21,913 bases of DNA, taken from Pocillopora damicornis (Eukaryota). Shown piece by piece: positions 1,572-21,913 of the stretch (positions within the stretch are counted from its first letter, which is position 1; each line of letters starts with the position of its first letter). The stretch covers positions 19,971 to 41,883 of the forward strand of contig NW_020846470.1 in NCBI RefSeq assembly GCF_003704095.1, written 5' to 3'. Position numbers and translations under genes: made by a program. The notes beneath the pieces were generated by a model. That model saw nothing but the letters and a program-made list of their open reading frames with translations. It was not told the origin of the DNA and searched no databases.

Positions 1572-1704
1572 ATCAATATCAGTATTTGGGCAACTGCCCA
1601 CCTACCCCTCCCCTAACCCAACATTAACCTTAACTTGTTGTCAACTGACTGTTGTTGAGTTAGGGGAGGGGTAGGTGGGCAGTTGCCCAGATACTGATAT
1701 TGAT
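1572..1704. repeat. Inverted repeat (two 45-bp arms, 1 mismatch, 43-bp spacer) spanning the unit 1 / unit 2 junction
   Basis: 1572-1616 (atcaatatcagtatttgggcaactgcccacctacccctcccctaa) is the reverse complement of 1660-1704 (ttaggggaggggtaggtgggcagttgcccagatactgatattgat). The right arm recurs at 34-83. Confidence 0.8.
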
Positions 1705-2036
1705 ACACTAACTCTAATAAAAGAACGAAGACAAAGAAAACATTAAAATCACGAGATTAACATTAACCTCTTGAGTACACAACCATGCGTGGCTTCGCCT
1801 TAGCTCGCCTTAATGCCTTATGTTCTCTCTCGGCGTCACAAGTGCCGATGCTCTTCACCGGCTCAGGCTTTGATTCACTCTTTATATACATGTCTGTTTG
1901 GACAGAAACAGGATCATGTTAGTGGCAATAAGTTTTTTTTCTTTTGGAGAATGCAGAGTAACATCCATTGGAAAATCATCCTTTGTAGTTGCCCGCCCAA
2001 AATAAGAAACTCTGTTCTGTCGAACTTTGTAATAAT

Positions 2037-2190
2037 CGTCACACTCTGTAATACCTGTCGCACTATGTAAAAAAATTGTCGCACTTTGTAATACCTGGCG
2101 ACCTTTACAAAAACTTTTCGTCGCACTTCGTAACAAAAAATCTGTCACTCTTTGTAATAATAAATTATCGCACTTGGTAAGAAAATACGC
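2037..2190. repeat. Same ~20-bp sub-repeat cluster in copy 2, expanded to ~7 units
   Basis: Copy 2 has the extra block tgtcgcactatgtaaaaaaattgtcgcactttgtaatacc, absent from copy 1. Confidence 0.6.
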
Positions 2191-2794
2191 TTTTTGAAAT
2201 TTTTTCCTTCAACCTCGAGCCTTTAATGGGCCGTAATAATTATTTGCATATCAAAAAATCTTCACTAAAATAAGGTTTTCTCAGGTAATGTGCCATGAAA
2301 TTTGACGTCATACCAACTCATACTGATGATCGGAGGAATGACGACCTGAATTTTTTTATAGTATAGACTTCTTCTTGATTGATAGGGGGAATGTCATTTT
2401 CACCTTTCAAATTTCACTTTTATAGCTCGAAGAACCAGTTACTGCATCAATCTTCGAAAGATTACCAGATAAAGCGGTTCCTTTTAATGAAATGTTATAC
2501 ATTTCCCGATAGTCACCAAGACAAGCAAGTGGCTTTAAAAAAGTTGACAAGACGTAGTTACATCCTAACATCAGTGTGCATATTATCCTGACTATTCTCC
2601 ACACACAGGAGAATTTGTTAAACAATCAAGAGCTTCTTAATTGGTGATCATTTCCTTTATTCTCGACACCTTAATGTACGATTCAGGTGTGATATTGTAA
2701 GGAGAAATTAGATGCTTGTCACACTTAGGGGTCAAAAGGTAAACTATCATCACCCATCAAACCGACTAGTAAGAGAAAACACGTTCTACTGTAC

Positions 2795-2884
2795 CTTGGG
2801 TCCTCGTTTTAGAGGCTGAATTCATGGCTCTCATGATTACCCGCGGGGAGTGCGCCTCTGAAGCTTCCACTTCCTCATCCATTT
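2795..2884 (-). CDS. Candidate cassette-like exon (phase 1-1, 90 nt) in repeat copy 2: E MDEEVEASEAHSPRVIMRAMNSASKTRTQ
   Basis: Acceptor ttttcaatctacag|AA, donor CCCAAG|GTACAG. Phase-compatible with the donor of exon 3321-3490. Confidence 0.45.
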
Positions 2885-3320
2885 CTGTAGATTGAAAATA
2901 TAATTCGTATTTTGATATTTAATTTATGTTGTCATGGTGTAATTAGCTTCTTTGCTCCCTTTTGTCTATCCTTATCCCAGAAAATTATCATGTTGAGGTT
3001 TCCATCAATATTCTCTATTTGATAAATCCCAAGAAATAAACAGAGGGAAAGTGCATTCTACTCCCTGGCTCCCGCAATGATTATGTGTACTTTTCTTTTC
3101 CAAGACAGAATTTCTCCATAAAATATCGATATAATATCAACCAGATAATTGATAAGAATAAGAAAAATATCAATTTGGGGATAATTGGTTTATCCAATAC
3201 TAAATTCTCTGAACTAACATTATAAGAATTGTATGGTTGATAGCAAGGAGAATTACAAATTTGATCTAGGAGTTAAAAGGTTAAATAATGGCCGCTCCCT
3301 TGGTGTAAGTTTCCTCGTAC

Positions 3321-5093: not shown

Positions 5094-5237
5094 CTTAACT
5101 GTCACTGGCTGATCAGCACCGAGGTTTTCCTTCGCTTCTTCAATAATTTCTTTGTAAAGGCGCTCGCTTTGTAAAACTGAGCTTGTCTCCAACACCTTCG
5201 CCTCTTGGAGCTTTTTCTCTAGTTTCTCTTCAATATT
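5094..5237 (-). CDS. VIT/VWA gene exon: NIEEKLEKKLQEAKVLETSSVLQSERLYKEIIEEAKENLGADQPVTVK (phase 0-0)
   Basis: Acceptor ttccaaccacag|AAT, donor GTTAAG|GTAAAC. 144 nt, 48 codons with no stop, coiled-coil-like composition. Confidence 0.65.
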
Positions 5238-5651
5238 CTGTGGTTGGAACGTGGAGGGCAATCATGCAGATTTGCACATAACGACAAAATTACAATCTTA
5301 GCCTTGACCTCCAAAATCATTTTAACAAAACACCAAACCCCGAAAACGCTTTTCTTTTTGTTAAGTTAAAACCTCTCCCAACAAGGAGTGACTTCAAAAG
5401 AAGTTTGTCTTTACAAGATCTATACATTTTCAAGCAGAAAGCTGATGGGAAGAAAGGAATACCAGAATATCAACTAGGGGATGTTGTTTGATTTGACAGT
5501 AAATTCTCCGAGCCTAAAATGAGAAATATGTTCTGGAAAATGGAGAAAATTTATAGCTAGATCTTGGGACTAAGGTCATAAAAAAAACAAGATATAAGGC
5601 TTTGCAGTAAGCTCGATTTGAAGGCTACTGCTGAAAAAGGACCATTCTTAC

Positions 5652-5774
5652 CAGTTCCTGATTTTTCTCCATTACAGGTCGACTCTCCCAAGCTATGTAT
5701 TCCAATATGTCTACATCTTCCGTAGAGACCAACTCGAGTATACTCGGTCCCTGGCCCTCCTTGAATTTCTCGTC
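5652..5774 (-). CDS. VIT/VWA gene exon: DEKFKEGQGPSILELVSTEDVDILEYIAWESRPVMEKNQEL (phase 0-0)
   Basis: Acceptor ccttcttatag|GAC, donor GGAACTG|GTAAGAATGG. 123 nt. This frame was preferred over the Gly/Cys-rich frame of the six-frame track. Confidence 0.65.
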
Positions 5775-6368
5775 CTATAAGAAGGAAACGGAAAAGCAAC
5801 ACACATGTTGTCAAGAATTTTGAGAGGTTATATGGGTAATTCAACTCCAGCCAATACTCCTTTAAACAGGGTTTCAACGAGACGTATACTCTGGAAACCT
5901 TATCATTCATGTTATTAAAAGCATTTACATGTAAATTCTTAGCTTACCCCTATTTGAGATTCCAGAGTTATCTCGCCATTCGAAAATTTTCTCCTAATGC
6001 TTTAAAAATTCAACTTTAGACTCCGCCATTTTGAAAACAATTCAGTAAAATGGGAACGCACACATAACCTATGAGCAACGGTTCACATTCTGCCGCTCCT
6101 GTAGCTTCAAACAAATTGGCGAGAGATGGAAGAGTGGGGAATGAGCCTTGTTATGTCACAGGTAAGCAGCCGGATCGCTAAGAAAGGTTTAATATGGCGA
6201 CCTCCATGGTCGAATCTTCAGCAAATTGAAAAAAGACTTAGAAAGGCTCGGTTACTCTTAATAATCTCAAAATGAAGCAAGAATCATAATTTCGTACATA
6301 CGCTATTCATCAATGAGACTAAATTGCATGGTTTCTTGGGCATATTTCTCCCTTTATCTCATTTCTAC

Positions 6369-6470
6369 CTTTTCTCTGTGTTCAACTGCAACAAAACTTG
6401 TGAATTTGGATACCACGGAGAACGTCTTGCTCAAGGAAACGATGAAGTCTTTCCTGTCTCTCTTCACAAT
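6369..6470 (-). CDS. VIT/VWA gene exon: IVKRDRKDFIVSLSKTFSVVSKFTSFVAVEHREK (phase 0-0)
   Basis: Acceptor ttattttatgattccgtag|ATT, donor GAAAAG|GTAGAAATG. Aligns well with the recalled human VWA5A segment KKDALNLSLESGVISSFTAFIAINKE. Confidence 0.75.
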
Positions 6471-7014
6471 CTACGGAATCATAAAATAACAACAACCTCG
6501 GTTCAGTCATGAACAAGGCAAATCTCGACGGCCTAGACATAAGTAAGCACTTAGGTATTAACATGCAACTGCAGCCCCCGGTTCTTTGAATGGTGGATAA
6601 CTCAATCCCCAAGACAAATCTCTATCCCGTGGATAGCGCAATACGTTTTGTTCGCAGTTATCCACTAGATAGCGACTTATCCGTTATTTAGTGTTAGTTT
6701 AGCCTCTTAGTCAGCCCCTTGAACAACTCGCAGCCAGTAAATTGTGTTCGCCAAGAACACAACATGATAACCCTGAGCAGGGTTTGAACCCAGACCCCTC
6801 CATCAGGATAGTGAATCAGTGTGTAATGTGTCAATCACCATTTGAAGTTATCGTCATAATCCTCATTGTTTCTGTCTCATCTTATGGAGACTAGGGCCAA
6901 TCCCTCTTTCTCCCTCCAACACGATTTGAATTACTCAGCACCGACAACATGCGGCTAAAATAAATGCAATGATGAATGATATTATTTAATATTAGCTATG
7001 TTTTTGAGACAAAC

Positions 7015-7095
7015 CTCATGCCCAGTGCGCTGCTCATGCAGGCTACCTTCGTCCCAGTCTCTGATGATTGCACGCGCGGTCAGCTGATGAAGAAT
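7015..7095 (-). CDS. VIT/VWA gene exon: ILHQLTARAIIRDWDEGSLHEQRTGHE (phase 0-0)
   Basis: Acceptor ttccttgcacag|ATT, donor CATGAG|GTTTGTC. Aligns with the recalled VWA5A segment TIHRLAAKSLLQTKD. An alternative donor after GACGAAG|GTAGCC gives a shorter exon with a non-compatible phase. Confidence 0.65.
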
Positions 7096-7175
7096 CTGTG
7101 CAAGGAAGCGATTGTAGAAAATTACCAAAAATGCAATCACTGAAAGCTGGATAGTTTTTTTCCACTTGCACTTAC

Positions 7176-7256
7176 TTTGCCCTTAGTGATATTTAGATCA
7201 GCGGTAGACACCATGGTTGATACCGTTGTGCCGTTAACCTCTGCGCTCAAGGTGGC
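7176..7256 (-). CDS. VIT/VWA gene exon: ATLSAEVNGTTVSTMVSTADLNITKGK (phase 0-0)
   Basis: Acceptor tcctaccag|GCC, donor GGCAAA|GTAAGTGC. 81 nt. DLNIT resembles the recalled VWA5A DVNLT. Confidence 0.65.
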
Positions 7257-7333
7257 CTGGTAGGAGTTCAGAAAAAATTCAAAGCATCAGTGTGGCCTTA
7301 AAATGAACTTGATGTCAGAAAATCAGTAGTTAC

Positions 7334-7504
7334 CTGTGTGCAGTTATCAACAAATCCATAAACCACTTGTCTAGAACCGTTGAACAGCGACAAGAGTTGG
7401 TGAGGAGCTTGTACAGGGGGACTGGACCCGGAATCGTGCTGCTGCCAGGTTACTCCCACTGATGTCAGGCCTGGTTGCTCAGCTTTGGACAACTGCGATC
7501 TCAC
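7334..7504 (-). CDS. VIT/VWA gene exon: VRSQLSKAEQPGLTSVGVTWQQHDSGSSPPVQAPHQLLSLFNGSRQVVYGFVDNCTQ (phase 0-0)
   Basis: Acceptor gttcatttag|GTG, donor CACACAG|GTAACTAC. 171 nt. Aligns with the recalled VWA5A segment VSLSWHLPPG...IFRGQRLISYAQL. Confidence 0.75.
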
Positions 7505-8021
7505 CTAAATGAACATTATTTTCTCAACAACGAATTCTTAAATATTCTTTTGATAATCAATTTTTCCAGAAGCTATGGCCGTTTTCTAAGAGACAATGAA
7601 GATTGGCGGAAGTTGTCATCGATAAATAATTTCATGCCATCAATTTTCATCTCGAGTCATAATAGCCTTTTCTGTTGACAGGAATTCCATACCTTTCTTT
7701 CCCATTTAGACTTGGCACTACCTTCAAAAAACTCTGAGGCACCAGCTCCAACTCTGGACATTGCTCGTAGAAGGTAACGATTGGCCGTGGAACTGAGGAG
7801 AAAAGGAAACGAACCAAACAAGGTGTAGTGATGAGAAACTTCTCGCATACAAACGGATATATATAGCAATTTCAAAGGTAACGCCTCAAGTCATCGGTGG
7901 TGTTTAACCAAAAATCCGAATTGTCACTTATCGTCTACAGGTAGAACAGGAAAAAATAATTTAATATCAGAGATCACATTTCTTTACGGGATGCTGCGCA
8001 CCCCGAGATCTGCCTCAATCC

Positions 8022-8058
8022 TAACTTGAAGCATCGTAGCTCAGTTGGTACCGGCATC
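8022..8058 (+). other. tRNA-derived fragment (5' half-like: GCATCGTAGCTCAGTTGGTA...CCGCAG)
   Basis: Shares TAGCTCAGTTGGTA and a CCGG..ATC..CGCAG segment with the 9256-9327 element, but is not a complete cloverleaf. Confidence 0.3.
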
Positions 8059-8899
8059 CAACCGCAGCACACGGACTTGAGTCGACTGTCATCAGAAAAG
8101 AAAAGAAGACCGAATTGGACGACATCTTTGGATCTCTTTGCTAAGATTAAAAACAAGGGAAACTTTATCTCATGGAAAAAACATTAAGTTTACAAAATCT
8201 GAGAGCTCAAAACGCCCTTCCTGAGTGTTTGCAAAATTTAAACTTAGCTTGAGCATCCAACACAGAGCTGAAGCCTTTGGGAGATATGGTACAATACGAT
8301 CCTAACCTGGAAAGGCCCTTTTCCGGTTACTTACCCCACACCAAGGGAAAAGAGCCTGTCACTTTGGCAATGATTGCGGATCAAGCCAAGAGTGGTTTCC
8401 TCTTCTGTCACGTGGCCATCCGAGATTAAGAACAGATTGCGTGGGTGGTCAGCGGTCGATAAGGTGGGTAACATGTACAGCTTCCGAAGGACTCGCCACA
8501 ACTCTGTGCTGCCTTTGTCAGCGATTAAGGACTGGAAAAAATGACGTAATAACTAACGATCTTGACTTTCAACCGGGTTGAAAACCAAAGGAATGGAATG
8601 GCATTTTAATTCGTTTGCACAGAAAAAGAATGTTATGTTCAATGAGAAGGCAATCTGAGGAAGAAATTACATTCTCAACAAGTTTTTAAATTCTTTTCAC
8701 GTGCCTTCCACGCGGTAAATTTTGCCAGCATGAGAAATTTTCAAGTGAAATAACTGAGAAAATCGTATGCAGCCTGTGCTCATATTTTACCATTGCGAGA
8801 ATCTGAGTAAACGCAGGAGCCCATTAATGAGCTCCTAGTATACGCCGATATGTCTCTGGTCAACTGAGCCACCCTACGGAAGCTTAGGAGTTTGCTTAC

Positions 8900-8973
8900 C
8901 TCGACAAATTTTTTAGCTTCTTCAAAAGAATCTTTGTCTTTTCGTACGCTATATAGAAACAGCTCTGAATGTT
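8900..8973 (-). CDS. VIT/VWA gene exon (C-terminal VWA helix): (x)HSELFLYSVRKDKDSFEEAKKFVE (phase 1 in, 0 out)
   Basis: Acceptor tgtctgttttcag|AA, donor GTCGAG|GTAAGCAAAC. Resembles the recalled VWA5A segment TSEFITGKDRMQSKALRTLKR. The upstream partner exon that supplies 1 nt was not found. Confidence 0.6.
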
Positions 8974-9255
8974 CTGAAAACAGACAAGTACAGCCAGTTA
9001 ACTGAACTGATTTAATATCAATTTGAAGCTGCACAAAGGGCTAAAGACGCGATGGAAATGCTAAAAAACGTTTACAGAGTAAGTTGACAATTAAAGGTGT
9101 CCCTCCCTACCTGCCGTCAAAACACAGTAGTTAAACTACAAACTAATCTGAATTTCATATATTTGCACTGCGGTGAAGAGATGAAATTAAGAGATCCTCG
9201 CAGCTAAGAACACTACTGAAACGAGTAGTTGAAAATAGGACCTGAAAAAAATTCA

Positions 9256-9327
9256 GGCTCGTACGGGATTTGAGCCCATGACCTCTGCGATACCGGTGCA
9301 GCGCTTTACCAACTGAGCTAACAAGCC
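9256..9327 (-). pseudogene. tRNA-Ile-like degenerate tRNA (pseudogene or SINE head), followed by a T7 tract
   Basis: Minus strand: GGCTTGTTAGCTCAGTTGGTAAAGCGCTGCACCGGTATCGCAGAGGTCATGGGCTCAAATCCCGTACGAGCC. Resembles a recalled tRNA-Ile sequence, with acceptor stem and A/B-box-like regions. The D-stem and anticodon stem have mismatches, position 33 is not U, and the T-loop reads CTCAAAT. TGAATTTTTTT follows 4 nt downstream. Confidence 0.5.
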
Positions 9328-10800
9328 AACTGGGAGCTGGTCAATGTGTTGAGTCCAAATAAACCATCCAAGTAATGAATGAAGATTTTAGATATATGAA
9401 TTTCATATATTTAAATATATATTTATAAACTAATCTCTTGTTTGTAGTCAACAAACCATTGACAGAAATGTAGCGTCCACGGATTTACGAAAAGAGCATG
9501 GAAATGGAGCGTGTTACTCTTATTTTAACTTCAATGTTCATTGCAATCAAATCAAATAAAACCAAGGATTCTAAGGTATGCGCGAGTTGATTGGTCAATT
9601 CCGTTTCCGAGCCCACGTTCTACCAGGCCATTGACTCCCACAAAATGAGGAGAGCACCTGGCAAATCAAACGCTATTCATATGTACATCTGAATTGTTGA
9701 CGAGATAATAAATATTCTAATTCAAATAAATTACAGAAACTTTTGATTCTCTGATCTGCGATTGAAGCTGGTTCGGAAGGTTTTTTCTGTAAAACAATTG
9801 TTGAGGGTTTTGAGGAGGATTTATGATCATTGCTCAGTACTGACTGCAAGGAAAATTAGAACTATTTAATTAAAGAAGAGGTACTACACTGTGACTATAA
9901 AGTAGCTAAATATAAACTTATGTACATGGCATTTCGTGCATTCTGGCATGACTGCTTTTCATACAATTTGAATTGAGTAAACAGAATAGGAAAAACGCTA
10001 GAAGAGCAGAGTTCGCGGAGATAAACTAAAACCGAGAAAAAATTCCTGGTGCAGACCTGAGTTCTAAGCTTGGAAGGTTTTTGTACGCAGTAGTACTCTT
10101 TCGCATTCGTCAGACAATTTCTGGATACGAAAGTCTTGATTTCACTGTCAAAATTGATCAGTCTCTATTTGTCTCTGAACGAGGTTGTGCTTCATTTGAA
10201 ATTACGTTAGCCCTGGTTAGTTCTCTTCATAACTTCTTCTGAATCTTTCATCTCATTTTTTTCAACTATTGGGCTAATGCAGGTCCTCCTTACTCTTTCG
10301 AGCATTTTGATTGGTTTCTAACGCCAATAAACAATTAAGCACCACATAACAATCGCTTTTATGATTGAAATAAATTTAATTCACCACCTGACAAATCCAT
10401 GTTAAGGTTATGTCATGAAAGAAGTAAGATACATTTTCCAAGGGTTTATGCCGTGATAAACACTCACGGGATATTCGAAGAACACTCAGAAAGACTGACA
10501 ACGGCTCGTTATTCATGTTCTTTAAACAACCTGAGCGACTTTATGCCGCTAAACACTCTTGGATAAGGCTCTCTGTCGCCTACATAAATCACATCAGCAT
10601 AATTTTGCATGCTGCGGAGAACGAGTCAATACATCACTAAGTAGCTACTTTAAATGGAGATAAAACTCATTCCTACACTATTTTTGGTTTTTGGGAGATC
10701 TTATATCACCGTTTTTGAAAAATGCGGAAAGGACTCAAAGAAAATGTAATATTTAAAGCCTTAAAAATAAGTCTGAAATCATTCTCAGTTTATACGATAA

Positions 10801-11928
10801 CTAATTGTTAATACTCTCAGATTTGTGCTTTACAGAACGCAGCTTTCCCGCACACCACAAGACAATAGCAACATGTCCAAAGAGAACAAACATGGCCACG
10901 CCAACCGTGTTCATAAGAGTGGGCTGTGAAGAAAAACGATCTAACAGAGCTGATCTCCTTTCTTGAAGATCCACTTGGGCCGCGTTGAACGCCTGTTGGA
11001 TACCCATGGCGATCAATATATGAGCTAAATTGTGGCTTTGGCCAAAATTATCGAACACACCTGCCATTAAACGTTCTGGAACTCTCGTGGCGTACAGCGC
11101 GGCGCCTAAACCGCAGAAGACAACATGACGTTTGAAATACACCGTGGATATGCGGTTATACGCTGGGTCGGCGTTTTCACATAACAAAATACGGACCGTG
11201 TATGGTGATGTGATAACAAGCCAATTTACGGCAAGAACGCCGACCCTCAGCAAGGCTTTGTAATCTTTACAAAGTGGATGGTTTGATGCGCAACACAAAA
11301 AAGTTATGAAAAACGAAAAGAACGTCGAAATAGACTGGAAAACGGTAAGCGAATCGTGCACTGCCCAAGCAGACGCGCCCGCGGTCCTAGAGTAGAAAAA
11401 CATTGCTTGGCCGGCCGTGAACGTGTAAAACCCGATAGCCGCGTAGTCAAAGAAGAAACAAATTCTATGGGAATCCTCTGACATGCAGTTGAAAAGATGT
11501 GCAGAGGAACTCATTAAATACAGAACCGAAATTCCCACGGCGAAGGAGATCAGCGGCAGAAAAAATGGGTCAGTCGTGGGTAAGGACGTCATGTTTACAG
11601 ACACGAACAGTACTAGAGCAAGCAGGTGGCTCCAGACGTTTATAGTTTCGTTGGAAGATCGGAGCAAACTTCTGATACATTCCCAGAAGGTTAATCCAGG
11701 TCGTCGATAACCAGACACGATGAATGGCGTCCTGAACACTTCAGGGATTTGGTTGCTTGACAAGCCGTACTTTTTCTTGTTCGCCCCTTCAGAGTTCTCT
11801 TTTACACTTGAAGTTTTCTTCATATTGTCGCAGGCTGAAAAATTATTTTCCCATTCGTGACAGTTTGTCGGCGTTCTTTCTTTCATTTCGTTGGGTTGTT
11901 GAGGCCTTTTGTACGTCTTTAAATGCAT
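10801..11928 (-). CDS. PAQR family (class II, membrane progestin receptor-like) 7-TM protein; single exon; ~375 aa from first ATG
   Basis: Uninterrupted ORF. N-terminal IPEVFRTPFIVSGYRRP matches the recalled mPR motif VPPLFWKPYIYAGYRPL. Motifs present: NETINVWSHLL, SSSAHLFNCMS, DYAAIG, PERLMAGVFDNFGQSHNLAHILIAMG (three-His Zn site of the ADIPOR fold). Multiple hydrophobic TM segments. Confidence 0.85.
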   Translation of the reverse strand: MHLKTYKRPQQPNEMKERTPTNCHEWENNFSACDNMKKTSSVKENSEGANKKKYGLSSNQIPEVFRTPFIVSGYRRPGLTFWECIRSLLRSSNETINVWSHLLALVLFVSVNMTSLPTTDPFFLPLISFAVGISVLYLMSSSAHLFNCMSEDSHRICFFFDYAAIGFYTFTAGQAMFFYSRTAGASAWAVHDSLTVFQSISTFFSFFITFLCCASNHPLCKDYKALLRVGVLAVNWLVITSPYTVRILLCENADPAYNRISTVYFKRHVVFCGLGAALYATRVPERLMAGVFDNFGQSHNLAHILIAMGIQQAFNAAQVDLQERRSALLDRFSSQPTLMNTVGVAMFVLFGHVAIVLWCAGKLRSVKHKSESINN

Positions 11929-12502
11929 TCTCACGGATTAGCAGCTCCTTCTTTCGTTTCACTCAGCGATAAAATTGATTGATGGCGTTGTCTTCCTCAA
12001 TTAGACAACAGTTTATTCATTTGTGGGTCATTCACTTGAAGATTCCCGCCGTTAAATAAAAAATGTGGCTCACCTACGGCTGATTTCCTAGGTGCTTTCG
12101 CTTTTGCTCAATTTCCTTGAGCTTACCCGGTTGTCAAGTCAAGCACTGATATCAAACCGCTACCAGTTCTGAAAACGCCAAGCGCTGATCGGACCGCTTA
12201 CCAGTCGCGACGCTTATCATGAATAAATAAAATCGTTCTCTGCTACACTGGCAGGACAGATACGCAGACATTCTCTTGAAAAGTTCATTAAGAACTACAC
12301 GAAACCACAGATTAATACAACATTCCCGAACAAAACAAAGCCAGCGCTAAAACCGGTATGAAATGGATGACATAATAAGTTCAACTGGCTTGTAGAATCC
12401 CTCGCGCGTCTGCTCGCGTTGACTAACGTCATGTAAATTTTAAATATTTACCAGATCATCTTTCTCGAAAGCATCTCCCAGCGTTAGAACGCCAGCAATT
12501 AC

Positions 12503-12558
12503 CTTTGCCAGTATTATAAAGGCGAACAAAAGATTTTCGTAAATCTTGATTTTTTCGC
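12503..12558 (-). CDS. Possible small VWA exon (G)EKIKIYENLLFAFIILAK; weak
   Basis: Acceptor tatgcgccacag|GCG, donor GCAAAG|GTAATTGC. Phase-compatible with exon 13497-13763. Homology is weak and an alternative frame is also open. Confidence 0.25.
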
Positions 12559-13496
12559 CTGTGGCGCATAAATTTGATAAATTAGGAAAGTCACATTATT
12601 CATGTTAATATTTATTGTATAAGTCTCGAGGGACCCTCTGTTTATATTTGAATAGTTGCGTAAATATGGGCCAAACTGAAAATAATTTGAAACAAAACAG
12701 TAATACTAGTTAACAATTTGTATTTCAAGGTAAAAACACGTTCGTGACAAACTCCACAAAAATTTATCAATGTCACTCACTGAGTATTCGAACCATCGAC
12801 TTCGCAATGTATTACAAAAAAACGGACCGCATGAAATTGGAGTTAATTGTACAGAGATGTATGTAAAAAAAAAAAAACAATTCCGTTGTGATTTATTCTA
12901 TCTAGGAAAATCAACACAAATCTGATTTTCCTCGTTCTTCGCGGATGTTTCGGTATAGCTTAAAATGTACATTAAACGAACTAACAAAGCTAGGTGATAC
13001 AATACTGTAGCGAAACAAAACGATAAAATTCATTCATTGGATAGAGAAAAGGTTGCTAGAAGCAGTACCCTTTCGTGAGGGCTTCTCGCTTTTTTTGTTT
13101 CTTTATAGTATCAAAGCAGGTGATAACTCTGGACAATCAAGTCACCAGAAAAGTTTTATTTAACAAATTTCTATGGAAACGTTAGCGTTTCAGCGGAAAT
13201 TCGCTAATCGTAGTGCTATAAATCACGACGTTTGCTTGAATGTAACGGTTGAAGCGCATGCATGAAATGCACGCACAGTCAGTCTTCTTGTTATAATTTC
13301 TGTCTAGACGGATAATTCCCTTAAATTATTGAGAAGAATTTTTTAGATGCAATAACCTATCATCAAAAGGATGCTCTAAGTGGATAGAGTTCCACAGTCG
13401 TAATATATCCTTTGAACTAGACTAAAAGTAGACTGCTTTATAGAGCTCTTAAAATAGCCCTCCAAGTGGAGCCCCGCACAATGCGAGCAGGGCTAC

Positions 13497-13763
13497 CACA
13501 GGAACAAGTTGATGTAGTATCTGAAAAGAATATTATTCTCTCTACTTGAGATAAGGTATCACGAGGAAACATATCAAAATTCCATGCAGCTCTTGATAAA
13601 ACAACAACTACTTCAGACCCATAAAAACATCCGTAAGCAAGCACCTTCGAAAATCCTCGCGTTTGGGGCGTATATTTTAATACAGGAAATAAATGGGCGC
13701 TTTTACAAGGGCAAGAGAAGACACTCATTGAATTTTTCCCAAAAACGAGGCCAGATGTGGTCA
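13497..13763 (-). CDS. VIT/VWA gene exon (central VWA): (M)TTSGLVFGKNSMSVFSCPCKSAHLFPVLKYTPQTRGFSKVLAYGCFYGSEVVVVLSRAAWNFDMFPRDTLSQVERIIFFSDTTSTCSC (phase 1 in, 1 out)
   Basis: Acceptor (T-rich)cattctgcatcttaaag|TG. HLFPVLKYTPQT aligns with the recalled VWA5A CFPESVKYTQQT, and IIFFSD with LFVFTDG. Donor TGTG|GTAGCC is tentative; an alternative is ATT|GTGCGG at 13480. Confidence 0.55.
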
Positions 13764-13780
13764 CTTTAAGATGCAGAATG

Positions 13781-13824
13781 AAAAAAACAAAAACAAAAAC
13801 AAAGAAAAAATAACAACAAAAAAC
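13781..13824. repeat. (AAAAC)n-like A-rich microsatellite
   Basis: aaaaaaacaaaaacaaaaacaaagaaaaaataacaacaaaaaacc; on the minus strand it forms the T-rich polypyrimidine tract of the acceptor of exon 13497-13763. Confidence 0.8.
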
Positions 13825-14790
13825 CAGATACTATGAGTAGAATAGAAAGATGGTGAATGTTAGGATCAGTCACAACTTACAATTTTGCAATGAGCGCTAT
13901 GTAGAAGAAAAGGAAATGGTTTCCTTTATTGAAATGCTTTAGTTAGAAGCTATTATCAGTTATTGGAAGAAAGGATAGACGAGTGTGATAAACCAGTCAA
14001 AGAATCAACGCCGAAATCTAATCCTCTCTCATAATAAAACATTGTTCTTAAAGGTTTTGTAACTCGTCCTTACAACAAAGGGACGGAAGAGAGCGCTTTT
14101 TTCAATTGTTTCTAATTTTTTATTGGAGGGCCGTTCATTTAAAGAGAGCTGCTGAAACGAGAATTGAATGTGCGCCACTTAAAAGCAGTTATTCTGATAA
14201 CAGTTCGAGTACGATGACCAAAGCTGTCTCAAAATTTGTTTTAACTACAATGGTAAAAACATTTTGCGAGTAAAAACAATCATGAAATCAATTTACAAGT
14301 AGAACAAAGGTACTATGTCTGTAAAAAGTTCATTTCCATGCAATTTTCATGGACATTACATTACAATGATCAGCACAAGAATAGCGTGGAACACTGAAGT
14401 GTTAATAGGCCATTGATATCTGCAAAAAATTAATTCAAATACCTTTCTAATTAAGAATATATATAGAAAACCTCATTAAAAGATCAAGTCCTAATTGGAA
14501 GAAAAAGTTTCGGACATTTCTCTGAAGAGGACAACTTGCCTCGGTGATATAAAACATCCGTACTTAAAATAACAAAAAATATTCAAATAAATTCATGCTA
14601 TATGTATCTCAACAGTAGAAAGCAAACCGCTTGTTCTTCTTTACAATTTTCACGCTTTCCTCTTTAGAAAAACAATGGCAAACTTAAAATAAATTTTACT
14701 TTTGGAGGAAACATCCACTTCGATCAAATTACAGTATTTGCAACATAGGCGAACTTCTCGCCTTCCTTCGCAGAAATTTAAAAGTTCAGT

Positions 14791-15903
14791 TTAAGTAGAT
14801 TTATCATGTCCAATTTTACCGGATGAATTCGAAATTAAAGACCTAGCAAACCAGAGTACGATAGCGAGATTCCCAACCAGAACTAAAAGAGTCAAACCGA
14901 TCGTCTCGAAAAAACTCGGTGTATGTTCCGTGCTGAGGAATTCTTTTCTGGCTGAGAGATCCGAAAGGAGAACGGAGAATGCAAAATGGTCACCGGTAGT
15001 GGTAAGCACATGAAGAAAGTTGTGACTTTGCCCGATAAAATCGAAGAACCCGGGAACGAACCGTTCAGGTATTCGGGTCATATTCATTAAGGCAGCGGCG
15101 GCGAACGAGATAAGACACCCTACGAAGAGACCAAGAGAATCGGGATTGCATGCAGGATCAGAAGAGCACAAGAACAGACGAACGAAGTACGGTGAACAGT
15201 TGTGCAACCAGGATAGGATGTAGAAACCGGTGCGGACGATGAAACGGAGATCGAACCACTGATGACGAGACTTGCAACAGTTGAAAGTGGCACTGAACGA
15301 AATCAGGGCTGAAACGAATAGGAACAACTCCCGCCAGTCGAACAAAAGGAGCCCAGATCCCAGCGGATGGCTGTAAAAATAGAAGGCTTGACCATTGGTA
15401 AATGTGTATACGCTGATAGCAGCGTAATCCAGGTAGTACCCGATGTGGTTTTGTAGCTCGGTCATAGAGCTGAACATATGGGCCACACAACTCATCGTGT
15501 ACATAATGCAGCAGCCGAGAGTGTACGACACCAGTGGAAAATAAAAATGATCAGTGAAAGGATTATGGTTCCACACCACTGAGCAGTAGCGGGCAATGAG
15601 TATCACGGCGGAGAGAACATGGCTCCAGAAATTTACTGTCTCGTTGTTGGCGTAGAAAACACTCTTCACGCTATCGAGAGCGGTCAGGTTACGCGGCCGG
15701 TATCTTGTCGTAAGAAACTCGGTGCGGAAAGCTTGTGGGATTTGATCTTCACGTAATAACATGGAGTAGCGGTGGACCTCTTCAGTTTTACCTTCTTTCA
15801 GTGACCCATTTTTGTAAACACTATCATCTAAATCGTGCGACATCACCGCACCGTTTCGTTCGACTTGTTTAAGCTTTCCTTGTCTCGTCAGCACCTTCGT
15901 CAT
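14791..15903 (-). CDS. Second PAQR family (mPR-like) protein, paralog of 10801-11928; single exon; ~371 aa from first ATG (MTKVLTRQ...)
   Basis: ORF open to 16002, but the first ATG is at 15903. Motifs: IPQAFRTEFLTTRYRP, NETVNFWSHVLS, SCVAHMFSSMT, DYAAIS, PERFVPGFFDFIGQSHNFLHVLTTTG. Roughly 40% identical to the other copy. Confidence 0.85.
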   Translation of the reverse strand: MTKVLTRQGKLKQVERNGAVMSHDLDDSVYKNGSLKEGKTEEVHRYSMLLREDQIPQAFRTEFLTTRYRPRNLTALDSVKSVFYANNETVNFWSHVLSAVILIARYCSVVWNHNPFTDHFYFPLVSYTLGCCIMYTMSCVAHMFSSMTELQNHIGYYLDYAAISVYTFTNGQAFYFYSHPLGSGLLLFDWRELFLFVSALISFSATFNCCKSRHQWFDLRFIVRTGFYILSWLHNCSPYFVRLFLCSSDPACNPDSLGLFVGCLISFAAAALMNMTRIPERFVPGFFDFIGQSHNFLHVLTTTGDHFAFSVLLSDLSARKEFLSTEHTPSFFETIGLTLLVLVGNLAIVLWFARSLISNSSGKIGHDKST

Positions 15904-16499
15904 TTTTAACGATTTCTCCGCTCCTAAAAATATTTTTGCTTTTCTGAACCGGCGCCGGCGCTTCGCTTGTTGATGAATCGATATTGCAAACTGTAAAAAC
16001 AATTATGCAAATTCCAAACAATACGTAAGAACTGAGCAGATCTAACTTGCGCACGTTCAAAGTCATCTTCGTGGGTTGCACATTTTAAATAACGAAAAAT
16101 CATTAGAAAACGACAAATTAAAAGACACATTCTGGAGAAAACTTTACAGTAAAATCCTTCTAAAGCATCTGTATCCGTTGGATTTAATAATGGTTTCAAA
16201 GTTTTGAGTATATGGACTTTAAACTACTATCAATTAAAGAGTCTGATTATCTTTTGACTAAATAATTGACTCGTGACAGAATAGAGTGATTTTCACAATA
16301 TCTGTAAAGAATGAAGCAAAACCAAGTTTCTTTTTCTCTCTCTCTCGCACAGTTAAACCATTGCTTTATTTATTTGAGAGTTATGAACACACTGAACAGA
16401 GGTTTAAATAAAAAGGTTGGAGAGAAGAAGCTTACGCTCAAGAATCTTGAAGGGAGTACTTAAAGAAAGGAAAATACGTCACACCATAAGTGAAATTTT

Positions 16500-16560: not shown

Positions 16561-17121
16561 CTGAAATGCACTGGCGTTTTTCAAGGATAGTTATTTCATA
16601 TTTGCACGCTTGAGTTGTTACAAAATTACGCTTCAAAATGCACACCATTTAACATCTAAATCCAGGTGGTTTAAGATGTGTTCAAAAATTAAAACTTCAG
16701 ATATTTCGACTCCACTCTAACGGTTCACGAATATCGCACCACAGTTGTGGTGTCGGCTCCAGGAACATTGCACATCATGGGGACGAGTATGTGCAAACAT
16801 CGTGGTGCCTGAAGACATTAGTTGTTAAAAAATTTAAAACAGATTTTTTTCGAGCTTCTCTTTTACACTTGGCACTGTTCTGATCTTCGTGCTTTAGGAG
16901 TGGTGCCCTCTTATGTCTAACGTGGCTTCAACGGAGTCTACGAATGTGAGGCGCATGAGCGAATGCAATTGGCTATTCTGACGAAAATATGACCATGGAC
17001 TAGTATGAGATAAGACACATGAAACTTTCTTTTCCAATGAAGAAACGCATTTGAGTTGCAATGTTTAAGTCCGTGGTATATCTTTTTTCAAAAAATCCCT
17101 TTAACACACAAATGAACTTAC

Positions 17122-17215
17122 TGCTTCCAAACACGAGTACGTTGAAAATCCAACCTTCCTTCACAAGACTAAGGCACATCAGTAGTATCTTTTTGGCGTC
17201 GTTAAGATTTGAACC
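17122..17215 (-). CDS. VIT/VWA gene exon (VWA alpha1/betaB): GSNLNDAKKILLMCLSLVKEGWIFNVLVFGS (phase 0 in, 1 out)
   Basis: Acceptor ttttctctaacag|GGT, donor GGAAGCA|GTAAGTTC. Aligns with the recalled VWA5A segment RIQAAKETLILLLKSLPIGCYFNIYGFGS. Continues the MIDAS motif of the previous exon. Confidence 0.7.
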
Positions 17216-17754
17216 CTGTTAGAGAAAACAGATGTCAGCAGTATAACATATTTTTTTCAGAGCAATAAGGACAATGGTGCAGTTCTGGGCCCAGTTGTTC
17301 GAAGGCCGATTAGCGCTAACCCAGAATTAAATTTTAGTCTGCTTTTAGATCTGAAATCAGATTTCACAGTAACCCTAGAGCTTGGTTCGTTCCTTGTAAA
17401 AGGAAGATGGGGTCTGTAATTGGCTTAAGTATATACTACAATGGGGTTGGGGTTCTGAGAGGCCAGCGGCACGTTTCCGGAAAAAATTGACCCAGGTACC
17501 TTCCTTGCCCTGGCTTATCGTTTCCTTCGGAAAGTACAAATAGCACAACCTGAGATTAAACAGCTGTGGACAAACCATAGAAAAATGACGCAAATTTCCT
17601 AATTAAATGGTTCTGGAGTTTGAGATTAGCGCCGGAAATGAACAGCTCTCATTTGATCCCCAGAGGGATTTGCTTTAGCATGCGAAGAACATAACTACTA
17701 CGCGCTTCTGTACAGAAACGTACAAATAATATATTGACAGAGATCAACACTGAC

Positions 17755-17847
17755 CTTCATTGAGCAGGAAAGATCAAGCAGAAATATCACTTCAACTTCA
17801 GAAGGACTTTTAGCCTCGAACTCAGGATAAAATGTGAGCATACAAGC
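17755..17847 (-). CDS. VIT/VWA gene exon (start of VWA domain, MIDAS DxSxS): ACMLTFYPEFEAKSPSEVEVIFLLDLSCSMK (phase 0-0)
   Basis: Acceptor catttttcctctag|GCT, donor ATGAAG|GTCAGTG. Aligns with the recalled VWA5A segment VSFYPNIPEDQPSNTCGEFIFLMDRSGSMQ. Confidence 0.75.
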
Positions 17848-18080
17848 CTAGAGGAAAAATGCGTCCATGAGATTAAAGGTCTTTAGAGGAGAACACACGT
17901 GGCCCTCATCGCCCTTCCACAGCAGAAAGCAACTAAGAGGATCTTAACTCTTTTGGAATGGAAAGGCAGGTCGTCACAGGTCCTGAGTATTAACCTTGCT
18001 ATTCCGCCTCTTTACATCAAAAGTACAAGTGATTGTAAGTGTTCAATGTGAAAGATAACACTAGAGAGCTGACCACTGAC

Positions 18081-18218
18081 CTGTCTATCTGAATTGTTGG
18101 TGTGCCGCTCCACCCACATCCGGGGTACGTGAATCTCTGCTAAACCAATCAAAAGTTGAAATCCATCCCCAAGAGACTGGCCTGGCTCCAGTTCTATCAC
18201 TGCTTTGGTGGCTGTTCG
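18081..18218 (-). CDS. VIT/VWA gene exon: RTATKAVIELEPGQSLGDGFQLLIGLAEIHVPRMWVERHTNNSDRQ (phase 0-0)
   Basis: Acceptor tctctatccag|CGA, donor GACAG|GTCAGTGG. Aligns with the recalled VWA5A segment TSAQVSLAAGHKFDRDVELLIYYNEVHTPSVVLEMG. Confidence 0.75.
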
Positions 18219-18716
18219 CTGGATAGAGAAACAAACAAACATGAATATTCAGATAACAACGTTATGCTGGGCTAATGCTCGAAACGCTAGGTTTTCAAAA
18301 TTCGCTGCAGCGACTCATCTACCTTTATCAACATATAGTTTACAATTAACAAAAGGCGATTAAAATCTTCCTCTCTAGAATCGTGGATAGAAGAGGAAAT
18401 GCGAAAGGCACAAGTAAGAAATGAAGTCAAGAAATATAACTAGAGAGCGCTATTCAATTGCGTATTTTAAAACCAAAACTTGAGGAAAATATCAATGAGA
18501 TATCAAAGTAAAACCGAAACCTCGTGAAGCGCAGGAAAACGCGGGCGATCAAGTCGTGATCGGTTTTAGTCTTGTAACTGATTAATTGAGAAGAAGAAGG
18601 CGCGAGTTTTCTGGACCAGTCACAAAACATAGTTGAAAGTAGCCAATGCAGTCCGTTACATCTTTCGATACGCAATGAAAAAGTGCTCCACAAAAGCGTG
18701 AGTGAATGAATATTAC

Positions 18717-18810
18717 CTTAACTTTCATCGCATGAGTCGGTGAGTCAAGTGAGCGAATCTCAAAGGGCATCTCCACGGACACTTTCATAGAAACGTCAAA
18801 GGCGGGATCG
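18717..18810 (-). CDS. VIT/VWA gene exon: (C)DPAFDVSMKVSVEMPFEIRSLDSPTHAMKVK (phase 2 in, 0 out)
   Basis: Acceptor cgttgttctctttcag|C, donor GTTAAG|GTAATATTC. Aligns with the recalled VWA5A segment DLPYTLSMVATIDSQHGIEKVQSNCPLSPTEY. Confidence 0.75.
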
Positions 18811-18953
18811 CTGAAAGAGAACAACGAATTAAGGATAATAAAAAAAGGAAATGCAGCTTAATTTCTCAAGGTTGCACCCGAGCAACTTTCAAAAATAAAG
18901 AGAAAAAATTAACAGCTGTTTACAAATCAATGCACTCCCATCCCAGAACTCAC

Positions 18954-18994
18954 CAGGGTCCCACTTCCCCTATCCGCACTGTATCCACATAAGT
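18954..18994 (-). CDS. 41-nt micro-exon: TYVDTVRIGEVGP + 2 nt (phase 0 in, 2 out)
   Basis: Required to bridge phase 0 (exon 19104-19268) to phase 2 (exon 18717-18810). Acceptor tttttttttcttatcag|ACT, donor CCCTG|GTGAGT (consensus). Confidence 0.5.
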
Positions 18995-19103
18995 CTGATA
19001 AGAAAAAAAAACAAAAGAACTTGATTCAACGATGAAGTTGAAGTCAAACGCGCAACAACACAAAAGAAGTAAGTAAAAGAAGGCATAAAACGTGGGTCAT
19101 GAC

Positions 19104-19268
19104 CTGAGTTACTTCTTCTAAGGCCTTGTCACGTGTCCACGGAGCCACGGTGCCTGGGAGAGAGAAACAGATGTGTTCGCCGTCCACTGTTAATTCAGTG
19201 ACATAAGTTATCTTGATTAATACTTGAGCACCGGGAGGAAGGTTTCCAACACTGACTGTAAACACATC
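19104..19268 (-). CDS. VIT/VWA gene exon (VIT core): DVFTVSVGNLPPGAQVLIKITYVTELTVDGEHICFSLPGTVAPWTRDKALEEVTQ (phase 0-0)
   Basis: Acceptor tatttactcag|GAT. Strong match to the recalled VWA5A segment DVFSCNVGNLQPGSKAAVTLKYVQELPLEADGALRFVLPAVLNPRY. The 3' end is either CAG|GTCATG (19104) or GAA|GTAACT (19113); both leave phase 0. Confidence 0.75.
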
Positions 19269-19736
19269 CTGAGTAAATATGAAATAAGCAAGAGAAATAT
19301 GAGATATAAATAAAGGGTGGGATCTTATTAGCGTTACCTTGAGGAACCCAGAGAATTCGGAGAAAGGGGGCGACATGTTGTGGTGGTGGCGCAGTCTTAC
19401 TCCATATAACAACAAATGAACATTTACTCTAAAGATTCTACGTTTCAAGAAATCTACGAGGAGGTAATCCCTCTCGGCCACCACTAAAGCTATCGACGAT
19501 TACCTTTATCTCAAAATAGAAAAGACTTCGCTACAAAGCTGGAGGTGTACGAATTGCATGATAGCCAAAACTTTGTTTGAAGGAGACAGGATAACTAAAA
19601 AAATATAATCTTTTCGAAGTTTTAGACCTATAAATTCTTCTTGTGTTCACTCAATTCAAATGAGCAACTTCAATATCACAACACAACGTAGATGAAGTTT
19701 CGTGGTTGAAAAACAGGTGGAAAACACGTTACCTAC

Positions 19737-19870
19737 CGGAGTTTCCTCGTCCATAAGGTAGGCCCCATGCCCCTTGCTGATGGCTTCCCTATATTCTTTG
19801 TGCGCTTGTTCTTTTTCCTTCACTTCACCAACGATATGCTTACCATTGATGAACGCCTCAAAACCACAAA
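19737..19870 (-). CDS. VIT/VWA gene exon: (V)CGFEAFINGKHIVGEVKEKEQAHKEYREAISKGHGAYLMDEETP (phase 1 in, 0 out)
   Basis: Acceptor ctggtcatag|TT, donor ACTCCG|GTAGGT. Aligns with the recalled VWA5A segment YSFEALVDGKKIVAELQDKMKARTNYEKAISQGHQAFLLEGDSSSR. Confidence 0.8.
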
Positions 19871-20229
19871 CTATGACCAGAAGGACGTCGACAGAGAAGG
19901 TATGTTAAACTTCTATTCAACAGTACTTCGGGAGCTTTTTAAACCCCGTTAAGATAAAACAGCGGGCCCGATTCGTCGGCAACGTGAACCCTTAATTTTG
20001 AATTCATTCTCTCAACCAAAACAAGGGAAAAAACTATTACAGAGAAGTGAATCTCCTGGATAATATGAGAATCCAACAAAGTTTACCCCTCAACTATAAC
20101 CACAAGTCCGAAGGTCATCTGCCGTAGCCAAGATACAAATTACAGGAGTTCGAAAGTTCATCACACAAGTTTTTTAAAAAGAGTTTCGAATTTTTCTATA
20201 AACTATCAGGCCGTCGACTAAAGACAAAC

Positions 20230-20314
20230 CTGCTGCCATGTCGTCGAGAGGGAAAACGTATTTAGCTTCTATGGGCGTCGAGCTGTTATTGCTGTACTCT
20301 TGAAAAACTATCAC
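20230..20314 (-). CDS. VIT/VWA gene exon 2: VIVFQEYSNNSSTPIEAKYVFPLDDMAA(G) (phase 0 in, 1 out)
   Basis: Acceptor T20-accacag|GTG, donor GCAG|GTTTGTC. Aligns with the recalled VWA5A segment ATLNYENEEKVPLEAFFVFPMDEDSA. Confidence 0.75.
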
Positions 20315-20321
20315 CTGTGGT

Positions 20322-20341
20322 AAAAAAAAAAAAAAAAAAAA
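20322..20341. repeat. A20 homopolymer
   Basis: Direct run of 20 A; serves as the minus-strand polypyrimidine tract of the exon 2 acceptor. Confidence 0.9.
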
Positions 20342-20448
20342 GAATATAAAAATGATTTGTAAGCTTATAATCGCCAAAAATTCAAACAGCTCTTGGAGAG
20401 AGACGATAGGAGCTACGTCACGCTTCCTGCATCTTAAACTAGATCGCT

Positions 20449-20589
20449 TGCAATCCGTAGTCAAAAAAAAAAACATTTACTCTAAACTAAGATTATGTAA
20501 TCTTAGTTTAGTCTTGCTTCTCTGGTGTTTTCCTGTCTAATCAAACTAATCATTAGTCATTACTAATCATTACTAATTTGCAATCCGTG
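20449..20589. mobile_element. MITE-like small element (~117 bp) with a perfect 14-bp-arm palindrome, flanked by an 11-bp direct repeat
   Basis: ttgcaatccgt at 20449-20459 and 20577-20587. Internal palindrome ctaaactaagatta-tg-taatcttagtttag. Also holds the tandem tcattactaa x2. Confidence 0.35.
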
Positions 20590-20834
20590 TCAATCTGCGC
20601 CATCCTTGACCATACTTCTCCCTCTTGGTTTATCTTCTTCCCTTCGATGTTTTTCCACCTTGCCGATCTAATATTTTGTAGCCTTCTTCAAGATGAAATT
20701 GATTTTTCGCGCCCAGAAACCGGAAAAAATGTGACATAATATCACAGATCGCGATGCAGCTCAATCAGAAAGGGAATGAATGATGTAGCCTACCAAATAA
20801 GCTTAATCAAATTTTCCTCGGCAATTTGACCAAC

Positions 20835-20951
20835 CTGAGCCGCCAAATCCAACAGCCTAGCTCTAATATGAACTGACTGCAACGGGATGGACTTGTCTCC
20901 AGTTCCCTTAAGTCCTGCCTCAACTTTAGTCAGAGGATCCACAATTGACAT
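20835..20951 (-). CDS. VIT/VWA gene first coding exon with start codon: MSIVDPLTKVEAGLKGTGDKSIPLQSVHIRARLLDLAAQ
   Basis: First in-frame ATG after an upstream in-frame TGA. Donor GCTCAG|GTTGGTC. Aligns with the recalled VWA5A N-terminus GLLTLHREPVPLKSISVSVNIYEFVAGVS. Confidence 0.7.
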
Positions 20952-21913
20952 CACATCCGTTAGGACTACACTGCCGCGATGGTCTAGGAAAAAGCATTTG
21001 AAATCAGTTCAAAACTCTAGTTACATTTTCAACTATTGTAAGAACATGCTTAAAAGCAATAACAAATAGAAAATAGACTCATATCGCAATTTATTATCCA
21101 TAATATAATTGAATAACAGCGACCTGTCACCTTAATTTTAGAAACCTACATAAAAATGTCAAAATGGAGGACGTTCATTCAATACCTTCGGGAGCAGCTT
21201 CCGAGCTATCATCGAAAAACCCGCTATCAATCGAGGCATCATCTCGATCAGCGACTACAACATCACCACGCAACACAAACTCAACCAGATATCTGCAAAA
21301 AAATGGAAATTTTTAAAGATCTTTGGACAGATATTTTACACACACGTATCGTAAATAAAGGTTATAGTTCTAAAAAAAGTATCAAATAAATCTGGCCCTG
21401 CATAACTGCCGAGGCTTAACGCACTTTTTTTTTTAGCATTACGTGACTTAGGGTAGTAAACAGCCTCAAGTAAGCTCCCTAACAACTCTGGGAAGGAAGA
21501 GAGACTGTATCACTTCAGGCTTTGCCAGAAACGAAAAATCGTTTCCCGGCCAAAGCTTGGCCTCAGTTTATTTTACAGATCCAGAATTGATCAAGATGCA
21601 CCGTCTCTTTTTAATATGAATCTATTATCCAACAAACAAATACCGAGAATGGAAAATCTTATCAAGAAAATATGTGTTGATATAACACCAAATCCTCCCA
21701 ACTAATTTAAAAGAAAATGTAAAGCAGTTTATGAATCAGATCTATGAAGTCCTCTTAACTGCAACCCTCAAAGCTAGGTGATGGACACCAAGCACTGTTA
21801 CAGTTACCTTATTTTCTGTTGGTTCCCGTTGTAGATGGCAAACTCGTCGTCCTGAAGAGCAATCAAAGTGCTCTGTGAGCAAACTCGTGAATTGACACAT
21901 GATTTTTTAGATT

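Follow-up and report, generated by a model that had tools for sequence, protein, structure and literature searches.

Two long open reading frames (ORFs) in a stretch of Pocillopora damicornis DNA (NCBI RefSeq assembly GCF_003704095.1, contig NW_020846470.1, positions 19,971 to 41,883; 21,913 nucleotides in all, hereafter the window) encode proteins of the PAQR family. Their proximity raises the question of whether they are an old pair of local duplicates kept by selection and, if so, what they might do in a coral. We call the two genes c1 and c2 and judge it likely that both are functional, anciently diverged members of a class II PAQR expansion whose named members are all cnidarian. An earlier note on this DNA, made from the letters alone, had described two co-oriented PAQR genes about 2.9 kb apart with roughly 40% protein identity and a full motif signature in each. 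All four points are borne out: both genes lie on the minus strand, 2,862 bp separate the c2 stop codon from the c1 ATG, and BLASTP aligns the proteins with 130 identical residues out of 337 (39%, E = 5e-73; 37% in a global codon alignment). The motifs are given below. The note's outer coordinates, 10801 and 15903, coincide exactly with the stop codon of c1 and the start codon of c2.

The frames were listed at 10801-11934 and 14791-16002 in a window of 35–47% G+C whose other ORFs are merely short and scattered. The listing used bacterial start codons, and its GTG and TTG starts are artefacts that we replaced by ATG starts. The c1 ATG at 11928 is kept in five of six orthologs, and the c2 start at 15903 agrees with two database proteins (P0083 and P0084), each of 370 amino acids. 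The earlier description of the genes as single-exon holds for the coding sequence and does not extend past it. On the minus strand, some 95 nt ahead of the c2 ATG, window positions 15995-16003 read TTTTTACAG, which resembles a 3′ splice acceptor, and given this site c2 may carry an intron in its 5′ untranslated region.

Both proteins match the Pfam family PF03006 (HlyIII), which has a cut-off of 26.2 bits: c1 with 108.2 bits (E = 6.5e-31, profile positions 4-220 of 224) and c2 with 88.5 bits (E = 6.5e-25, positions 1-220 of 224). PAQR proteins are recognised by the motifs of the zinc site: ExxNxxxH ahead of transmembrane helix (TM) 1, an SxxxH that closes TM2, an Asp that opens TM3 and an HxxxH within TM7. 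These are present as NETINVWSH, SSSAH, DYAAI and GQSHNLAHIL in c1 (E94, N97, H101, S140, H144, D161, H299 and H303) and as NETVNFWSH, SCVAH, DYAAI and GQSHNFLHVL in c2 (E88, N91, H95, S138, H142, D159, H294 and H298). As in the class I receptors AdipoR1 and AdipoR2 (PDB 5lxg, 5lwy and 6krz), the zinc ligands H191, H337 and H341 together with D208 and S187 have aligned counterparts in both copies. These positions and the E, N and H of ExxNxxxH are invariant in 165–166 of 166 family members, c1 and c2 included, and the AdipoR1 D208A mutant entry 6krz confirms that the Asp is aligned in register. Judged from its residues, the zinc-site signature is intact in both copies.

The placement of the pair within the family comes from neighbour-joining trees of 161–166 members; the rooted tree uses AdipoR1, which is the single class I sequence in a sample with no class III. 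The AdipoR1 sequence was that of the crystal construct, and four Japanese lamprey membrane progestin receptor (mPR) sequences were taken from the supplement of PMC6604198. Word-index protein searches had returned solely cnidarian, crustacean, echinoderm and sponge proteins and no vertebrate ones. The lamprey sequences carry beta, gamma, delta and epsilon labels that we inferred from their order in the file and from their resemblance to human sequences. In the trees c1 and c2 group with these four lamprey types and with invertebrate mPR-like proteins, not with AdipoR1. They fall inside a clade of 130 members, all the named ones cnidarian, with a bootstrap of 93, or 56 when the lamprey sequences and AdipoR1 are added. 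The assignment of both copies to class II (mPR-type) is supported. The earlier note had held that membership of different PAQR classes would speak against local paralogy; in the family phylogeny both copies are class II and share one clade. Within it there are at least ten well-supported subfamilies, the mutual order of which the trees leave unresolved.

The proteins nearest to c1 and c2 are those of stony corals, as expected of DNA from a reef coral and not from a vertebrate. The two genes occur together well beyond this assembly. Both also lie on a Tara Pacific coral metagenome scaffold (L001), the window species' own, which matches the window at 99.3% identity across 6.3 kb. In addition, four long-read assemblies (L003, L004, L005 and L007) each have a c2 ortholog (64–67% identical) followed on the same strand, 2.6–2.8 kb away, by a c1 ortholog (64–68%), and both copies are in one-to-one orthology across the four. 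The order is the same in all five coral loci: a gene with VIT (vault protein inter-alpha-trypsin) matches, c2, a spacer of about 2.7 kb, c1 and a downstream gene. In Oculina patagonica the c1 ortholog (P0003) is 71% identical and the c2 ortholog (P0086) 68%; overall, ortholog identity is 64–78% for c1 and 62–87% for c2. The trees unite the 18 c1 orthologs in one clade and the 31 c2 orthologs in another, both with a bootstrap of 100. An exhaustive HMMER scan of 1.84 billion representatives found a large family, with 1,867 representatives at E ≤ 0.001, in which the whole c1 clade is one 50% cluster.

The c1 and c2 clades share an identical basal split (bootstrap 84–94), separating the window, Oculina and L007 from L003, L004 and L005. 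We take Oculina to be a robust-clade coral. On that footing, and with Oculina grouping with the window, the split is probably that between Robusta and Complexa, so that the pair would predate the crown of reef-building Scleractinia. The genes have probably been neighbours, in the same order and orientation, since before the two sampled coral subclades parted.

Noel et al. 2023 (PMC10236652) count as tandem duplicates two genes of one contig, at most ten genes apart, whose proteins match at E ≤ 1e-20 over 80% or more of the shorter one. The c1–c2 match (E = 5e-73) covers c2 residues 27-358 of 370 (332 residues, 90%), the genes are adjacent, and comparison across the loci revealed no conserved gene between them. 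Species- or lineage-specific mPR copies are frequently tandem (Ren et al. 2019, PMC6604198). The most economical account is an old local array in which c2 and c1 are long-standing neighbours, most likely begun by local (tandem) duplication within an older PAQR array. A local origin is plausible; the two may or may not be each other's closest paralogs, the sister relationship being weakly supported.

Several observations weigh against this account. The node that joins c1 and c2, along with an Acropora 'gamma-A-like' clade that is nearer c2, has a bootstrap of only 18–29, in trees built by neighbour-joining alone. Each copy is closer to other subfamilies than to its neighbour, to which it is 39% identical: c1 is 44–46% identical to the Nematostella-type group of P0020 and P0025, and c2 is 43% identical to P0110 and P0043. 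Just four derived residues are common to c1 and c2 relative to the rest of the family. With the weak joining node, the higher identity elsewhere and so few shared residues, a direct duplication of one copy from the other is not shown. The pair is also not universal. At one further locus (L009, 10001-14176, corresponding to window 8516-15903) both flanking genes are kept beside a divergent c2-type gene (P0109, 54% identical), and a tblastn search of this syntenic locus found neither c1 nor a relic of it; the first exon downstream follows after a gap of about 3 kb, where the window has 6.3 kb.

These observations could reflect a different history, in which c1 and c2 are not mutual duplicates but older PAQR subfamilies that ended up adjacent, either as the last survivors of an ancestral array or by juxtaposition, for example through insertion of c1 beside c2. 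The absence of intermediates fits this as well: the word-index search returned no c1-type protein at 46–64% identity, and beyond the c1 cluster the HMMER scan gave nothing above 46% except three fragments (48–76% over short matches). We regard such a history as possible but rather doubtful. The shared orientation and the constant spacing of 2.6–2.9 kb in five genomes tell against it, as does the documented expansion of this family by tandem duplication (PMC6604198), and a pair of PAQR genes some 5 kb apart exists in Nematostella as well. Even the last survivors of an array, moreover, would count as an old local duplication. The derived residues at the L009 locus bear on the insertion variant in particular. 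P0109 and c2 share 21 of them, and c1 and c2 share a single one to the exclusion of P0109, so the split between c1 and c2 predates the L009 lineage. Loss of c1 in that lineage is most likely, and the same counts do not fit a late insertion. They also rule out that c1 arose late from c2, after the L009 split, and then diverged fast.

The names given to the Oculina orthologs in NCBI, 'membrane progestin receptor gamma-B-like' for that of c1 and 'membrane progestin receptor delta-like' for that of c2, call for comment. They would suggest that c1 and c2 are cnidarian orthologs of vertebrate mPR-gamma (PAQR5) and mPR-delta (PAQR6), and that the pair preserves an ancestral gamma/delta duplication. 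We consider this highly improbable. The lamprey gamma and delta sequences are sisters (bootstrap 100) and cluster with echinoderm and crustacean sequences, apart from c1 and c2, and c2 is only 28% identical to the former and 26% to the latter. An ortholog of delta would side with vertebrate delta and leave gamma out, but c2 sits among the cnidarian-named sequences. Crustacean proteins of one clade bear both 'gamma' and 'delta' names. In the published phylogeny, delta and epsilon originated within vertebrates and the seven mPR genes of Nematostella are all of gamma type (Ren et al. 2019, PMC6604198). Since the lamprey gamma and delta sequences are placed apart from c1 and c2, the 'delta-like' name is a best-hit artefact and not a sign of orthology. 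Automated names of this kind should not be taken to mean that a gene is the ortholog of a vertebrate subtype.

The earlier note had proposed estimating the ratio of non-synonymous to synonymous rates (dN/dS) between the copies. We did so, and found that the proportion of synonymous differences (pS) is 0.77, past the Jukes–Cantor limit; the synonymous sites are saturated and a ratio between the copies is meaningless. We therefore used ortholog pairs, with the method of Nei and Gojobori. Among these, dN/dS is 0.12–0.20 for c1 and 0.09–0.26 for c2. The unsaturated pairs give an omega of 0.26 for c2 against L011 (dS 0.26) and of 0.17 for c1 against L012 (dS 0.68). Between the window and the alleles of the Tara scaffold, c1 has five synonymous changes and one non-synonymous, and c2 has three and one. 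Both copies are under purifying selection as separate orthogroups. The saturation between them indicates a very old duplication, and with the intact frames these values uphold the earlier view of genes maintained under selection, neither a recent copy nor a pseudogene. Of the claim of an old local duplication, the first half stands on the orthogroups with bootstrap 100, the shared synteny and the saturated synonymous sites; the second is no more than plausible, given the low bootstrap of the joining node. It is barely credible that either gene is a young duplicate, a pseudogene in decay or an artefact of assembly or haplotypes. The sole hint is that automated coral annotation often misses these genes, the NCBI protein sets having yielded no ortholog from Stylophora or Acropora, and the idea is contradicted by the 39% identity of the copies together with their saturated synonymous sites, by frames open end to end that keep all the invariant family residues, by the selection on each orthogroup and by the independent assembly of the pair in the Tara scaffold and four long-read assemblies.

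To characterise the proteins, we built AlphaFold2 models on alignments of 100 sequences. The mean predicted local distance difference test (pLDDT) score was 89.1 for c1 and 88.7 for c2, with a predicted template modelling score of 0.86. Each model comprises eight long helices and a disordered N-terminal tail of about 40–50 residues. Foldseek searches of the PDB (E ≤ 0.001) matched AdipoR1 and AdipoR2 only, for both copies, with target-normalised template modelling scores of 0.73–0.81. The eighth, C-terminal helix (residues 339-374 in c1 and 331-363 in c2) is predicted with high pLDDT and is 74–79% conserved among orthologs. Kyte–Doolittle hydropathy found just five to six segments and was superseded by the modelled helices. 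Lys and Arg are biased towards the N-terminal side (10 versus 4 in c1, 9 versus 2 in c2), which favours a cytoplasmic N-terminus. This topology prediction, which the earlier note had also suggested making, fits the AdipoR seven-helix fold with an added eighth helix and both termini inside (N-in/C-in). Eight helices and an N-in/C-in topology are a hallmark of PAQR5–9 (PMC13562381; PMC9179843).

From these features and from what is known of the family, a mechanism can be proposed. Behind a disordered cytoplasmic tail, the AdipoR-like seven-helix core, capped by the eighth helix, would carry a complete zinc site of three His and one Asp, with the Ser of SxxxH and the ExxNxxxH motif. This would form a zinc-centred intramembrane pocket of the AdipoR/ceramidase type, lipid-binding or hydrolytic, that may convert a lipophilic ligand signal, or the state of the membrane lipids, into lipid second messengers. 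The paralogs would differ in ligand, expression or partners. One published result weighs against a strictly catalytic reading: in Xenopus mPR-beta, mutation of the zinc-site residues leaves progesterone-induced oocyte maturation intact, and this maturation requires the co-receptor ABHD2 (PMC11774516). In mPR-type proteins the conserved site therefore need not act catalytically, and the literature is divided on whether they use it catalytically (PMC11774516; PMC13562381). Both copies have a basic residue at the position of AdipoR1 R267 or beside it, where the HMMER and MAFFT alignments lie four residues apart. On account of this disagreement we gave up placing Q206, the progesterone contact in human mPR-alpha, on c1 and c2.

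The earlier note had further called the N-terminal tails divergent and Lys/Glu-rich in both copies. They are divergent, and their charge is moderate, with 9 Lys and 6 Glu in 60 residues of c1 and 6 Lys and 5 Glu in 54 residues of c2. Its suggestion that the tails point to differing regulation finds no support. The tails are predicted to be disordered in both models (pLDDT < 50) and evolve fast even among orthologs, where identity is 27% in the c1 tail against 80% in the core, and 45% against 74% in c2. A difference between the tails of the paralogs thus says little about regulation.

A better-founded candidate for regulatory asymmetry is the conserved 5′ flank with its upstream ORFs (uORFs), which appears ahead of c1 only (Table 1). 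Over 450 nt this flank is 59–60% identical between the window and loci L002 and L007, compared with 40–45% in shuffled controls, although synonymous sites are saturated in the same comparisons. The c2 flank is at background (43–45%). Two of the Logan contigs, L006 and L008, follow the genomic loci L005 and L007 with 100% colinearity. Contigs L008 and L013, from two species, both start at the homologous sequence 'ATTGAACG', roughly 475 nt before the c1 ATG, which may mark a transcription start. We rejected the Logan contigs as transcript evidence for the leader, given that another of them, L012, reaches further upstream and carries a Nextera adaptor, so that an RNA origin cannot be told from a DNA origin. 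The more ambitious idea that c1 and c2 are specialised coral lipid or steroid sensors, with c1 under translational control of its own through the leader, seems unlikely.

Table 1 Features of the c1–c2 locus, in window coordinates
Feature	Position	Strand	Description
c1	10801..11928	-	Intact intronless coding sequence, class II (mPR-type) PAQR, 375 amino acids + stop
c2	14791..15903	-	Intact intronless coding sequence, second class II PAQR, 370 amino acids + stop
Intergenic spacer, c2 stop to c1 ATG	11929..14790	.	2,862 bp
c1 5′ flank or leader	11929..12410	-	Conserved; two conserved upstream ORFs
uORF of c1	12152-12220	-	MISVATGKRSDQRLAFSELVAV; upstream ATG in conserved context in all seven loci examined
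uORF of c1	11997-12020	-	MNKLLSN; 7 codons, MNKLLSN/D kept in the window's subclade
Upstream neighbour, VIT-domain gene exons	17108..20973	-	Pfam VIT matches and blastn exon blocks; synteny anchor
Downstream neighbour, multi-exon gene	5155..8987	-	Colinear exon-sized blastn blocks; second synteny anchor

The pair can be compared with three sets of known genes. With the vertebrate mPRs (PAQR5–9) it shares the Pfam family, all the PAQR motifs, an AdipoR-like core with an eighth helix and the predicted N-in/C-in topology, and in the rooted tree it clusters with mPR-type sequences and not with AdipoR1. Like mPR-epsilon of human, mouse and lamprey, its coding sequences are without introns (PMC6604198). 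Unlike any vertebrate mPR, c1 and c2 belong to a separate cnidarian-named expansion that is orthologous to no single vertebrate subtype, and they are merely 21–29% identical to the lamprey mPRs. The AdipoRs, whose zinc ligands align with the coral ones, are about 20–23% identical to c1 and c2; they have seven helices and an extracellular C-terminus where the coral proteins add an eighth helix, and AdipoR1 is the outgroup of the tree. A further parallel is offered by the mPR-gamma-type expansion of Nematostella vectensis and the tandem mPR-beta arrays of lancelets, which are likewise lineage-specific multiplications, often in tandem (PMC6604198). Two intronless Nematostella PAQR genes, P0025 and P0160, lie on one strand about 5 kb apart (L010 10001-16798, DS469507.1). 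Unlike at the coral locus, a COX24_C gene stands between them and a peptidase M13 gene upstream, with no VIT gene, and the two loci are not obviously syntenic. P0025 is 43–45% identical to c1 and belongs to the same cnidarian-named clade, in another subfamily; the coral pair, unlike the Nematostella expansion, is kept across genomes and is not species-specific.

Taken on its sequence, the pair is real, old and functional but ordinary, with nothing that departs from what the family leads one to expect. It exemplifies two known things, the cnidarian expansion of mPR-type PAQRs and the pervasive tandem duplication of coral genomes. About 30% of Porites and Pocillopora genes are tandem duplicates, and the PAQR family goes unmentioned among the amplified families (Noel et al. 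2023, PMC10236652). Unlike most coral tandem duplicates, c1 and c2 form a two-gene cluster and are much older. They mark out two orthogroups conserved among corals at a constant syntenic position (VIT gene, c2, c1, downstream gene), and in some genomes these seem to escape the annotation pipelines. Measurements in corals show cycles of progesterone and estrogen, and receptor-mediated signalling 'remains to be established' (PMC13254851). No receptor is established in coral reproduction (PMC13254851), for which the pair supplies named candidates for membrane steroid or lipid receptors. Should the receptors missing for these hormone cycles, measured around gametogenesis and spawning, turn out to be coral mPR-type PAQRs, this would be a concrete candidate locus.

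The flanking genes that anchor the synteny are conserved exon by exon. In the VIT gene, the ORFs at 20174-20476 and 19044-19484 match successive parts of the Pfam VIT profile (positions 16-44 and 88-111). Its exons are kept, as exon-sized blastn matches, in L003, L004, L005, L007 and L009, and in L007 a VIT gene is called upstream of the pair. The same five loci keep up to ten exon-sized blocks of the downstream gene. The first of these overlaps an ORF with a weak La-domain match (E = 0.006), below the Pfam cut-off and insufficient to name the gene.

Between c2 and c1, the length of the spacer is nearly constant, at 2,625 bp in L007, 2,724 bp in L003 and 2,770 bp in L004, compared with the 2,862 bp of the window. 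Its sequence cannot be aligned across genomes outside the part next to c1, and blastn matches inside it are confined to 12186-12489. The spacer ORF at 13438-13764 has no Pfam match, and Rfam, tRNA and repeat scans of the window gave nothing relevant to the pair.

The scans did reveal a tRNA-Thr (anticodon GGT) at window positions 9255-9327 on the minus strand, between c1 and the downstream gene, with 50.8 bits in Rfam and agreement from ARAGORN. It is absent at the syntenic loci. In L007 a tRNA-Trp lies within the c2–c1 spacer (8319-8391 of that locus). Both may be dispersed tRNA genes or tRNA-derived repeats. At the start of the window, a segment some 1.4 kb long occurs twice in head-to-tail order (43-1438 and 1664-3096, period about 1.65 kb), with blocks that are 84–98% identical. 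The similar ORFs at 264-551 and 1813-2070 belong to this segment, which looks like a recent local duplication or a repeat element.

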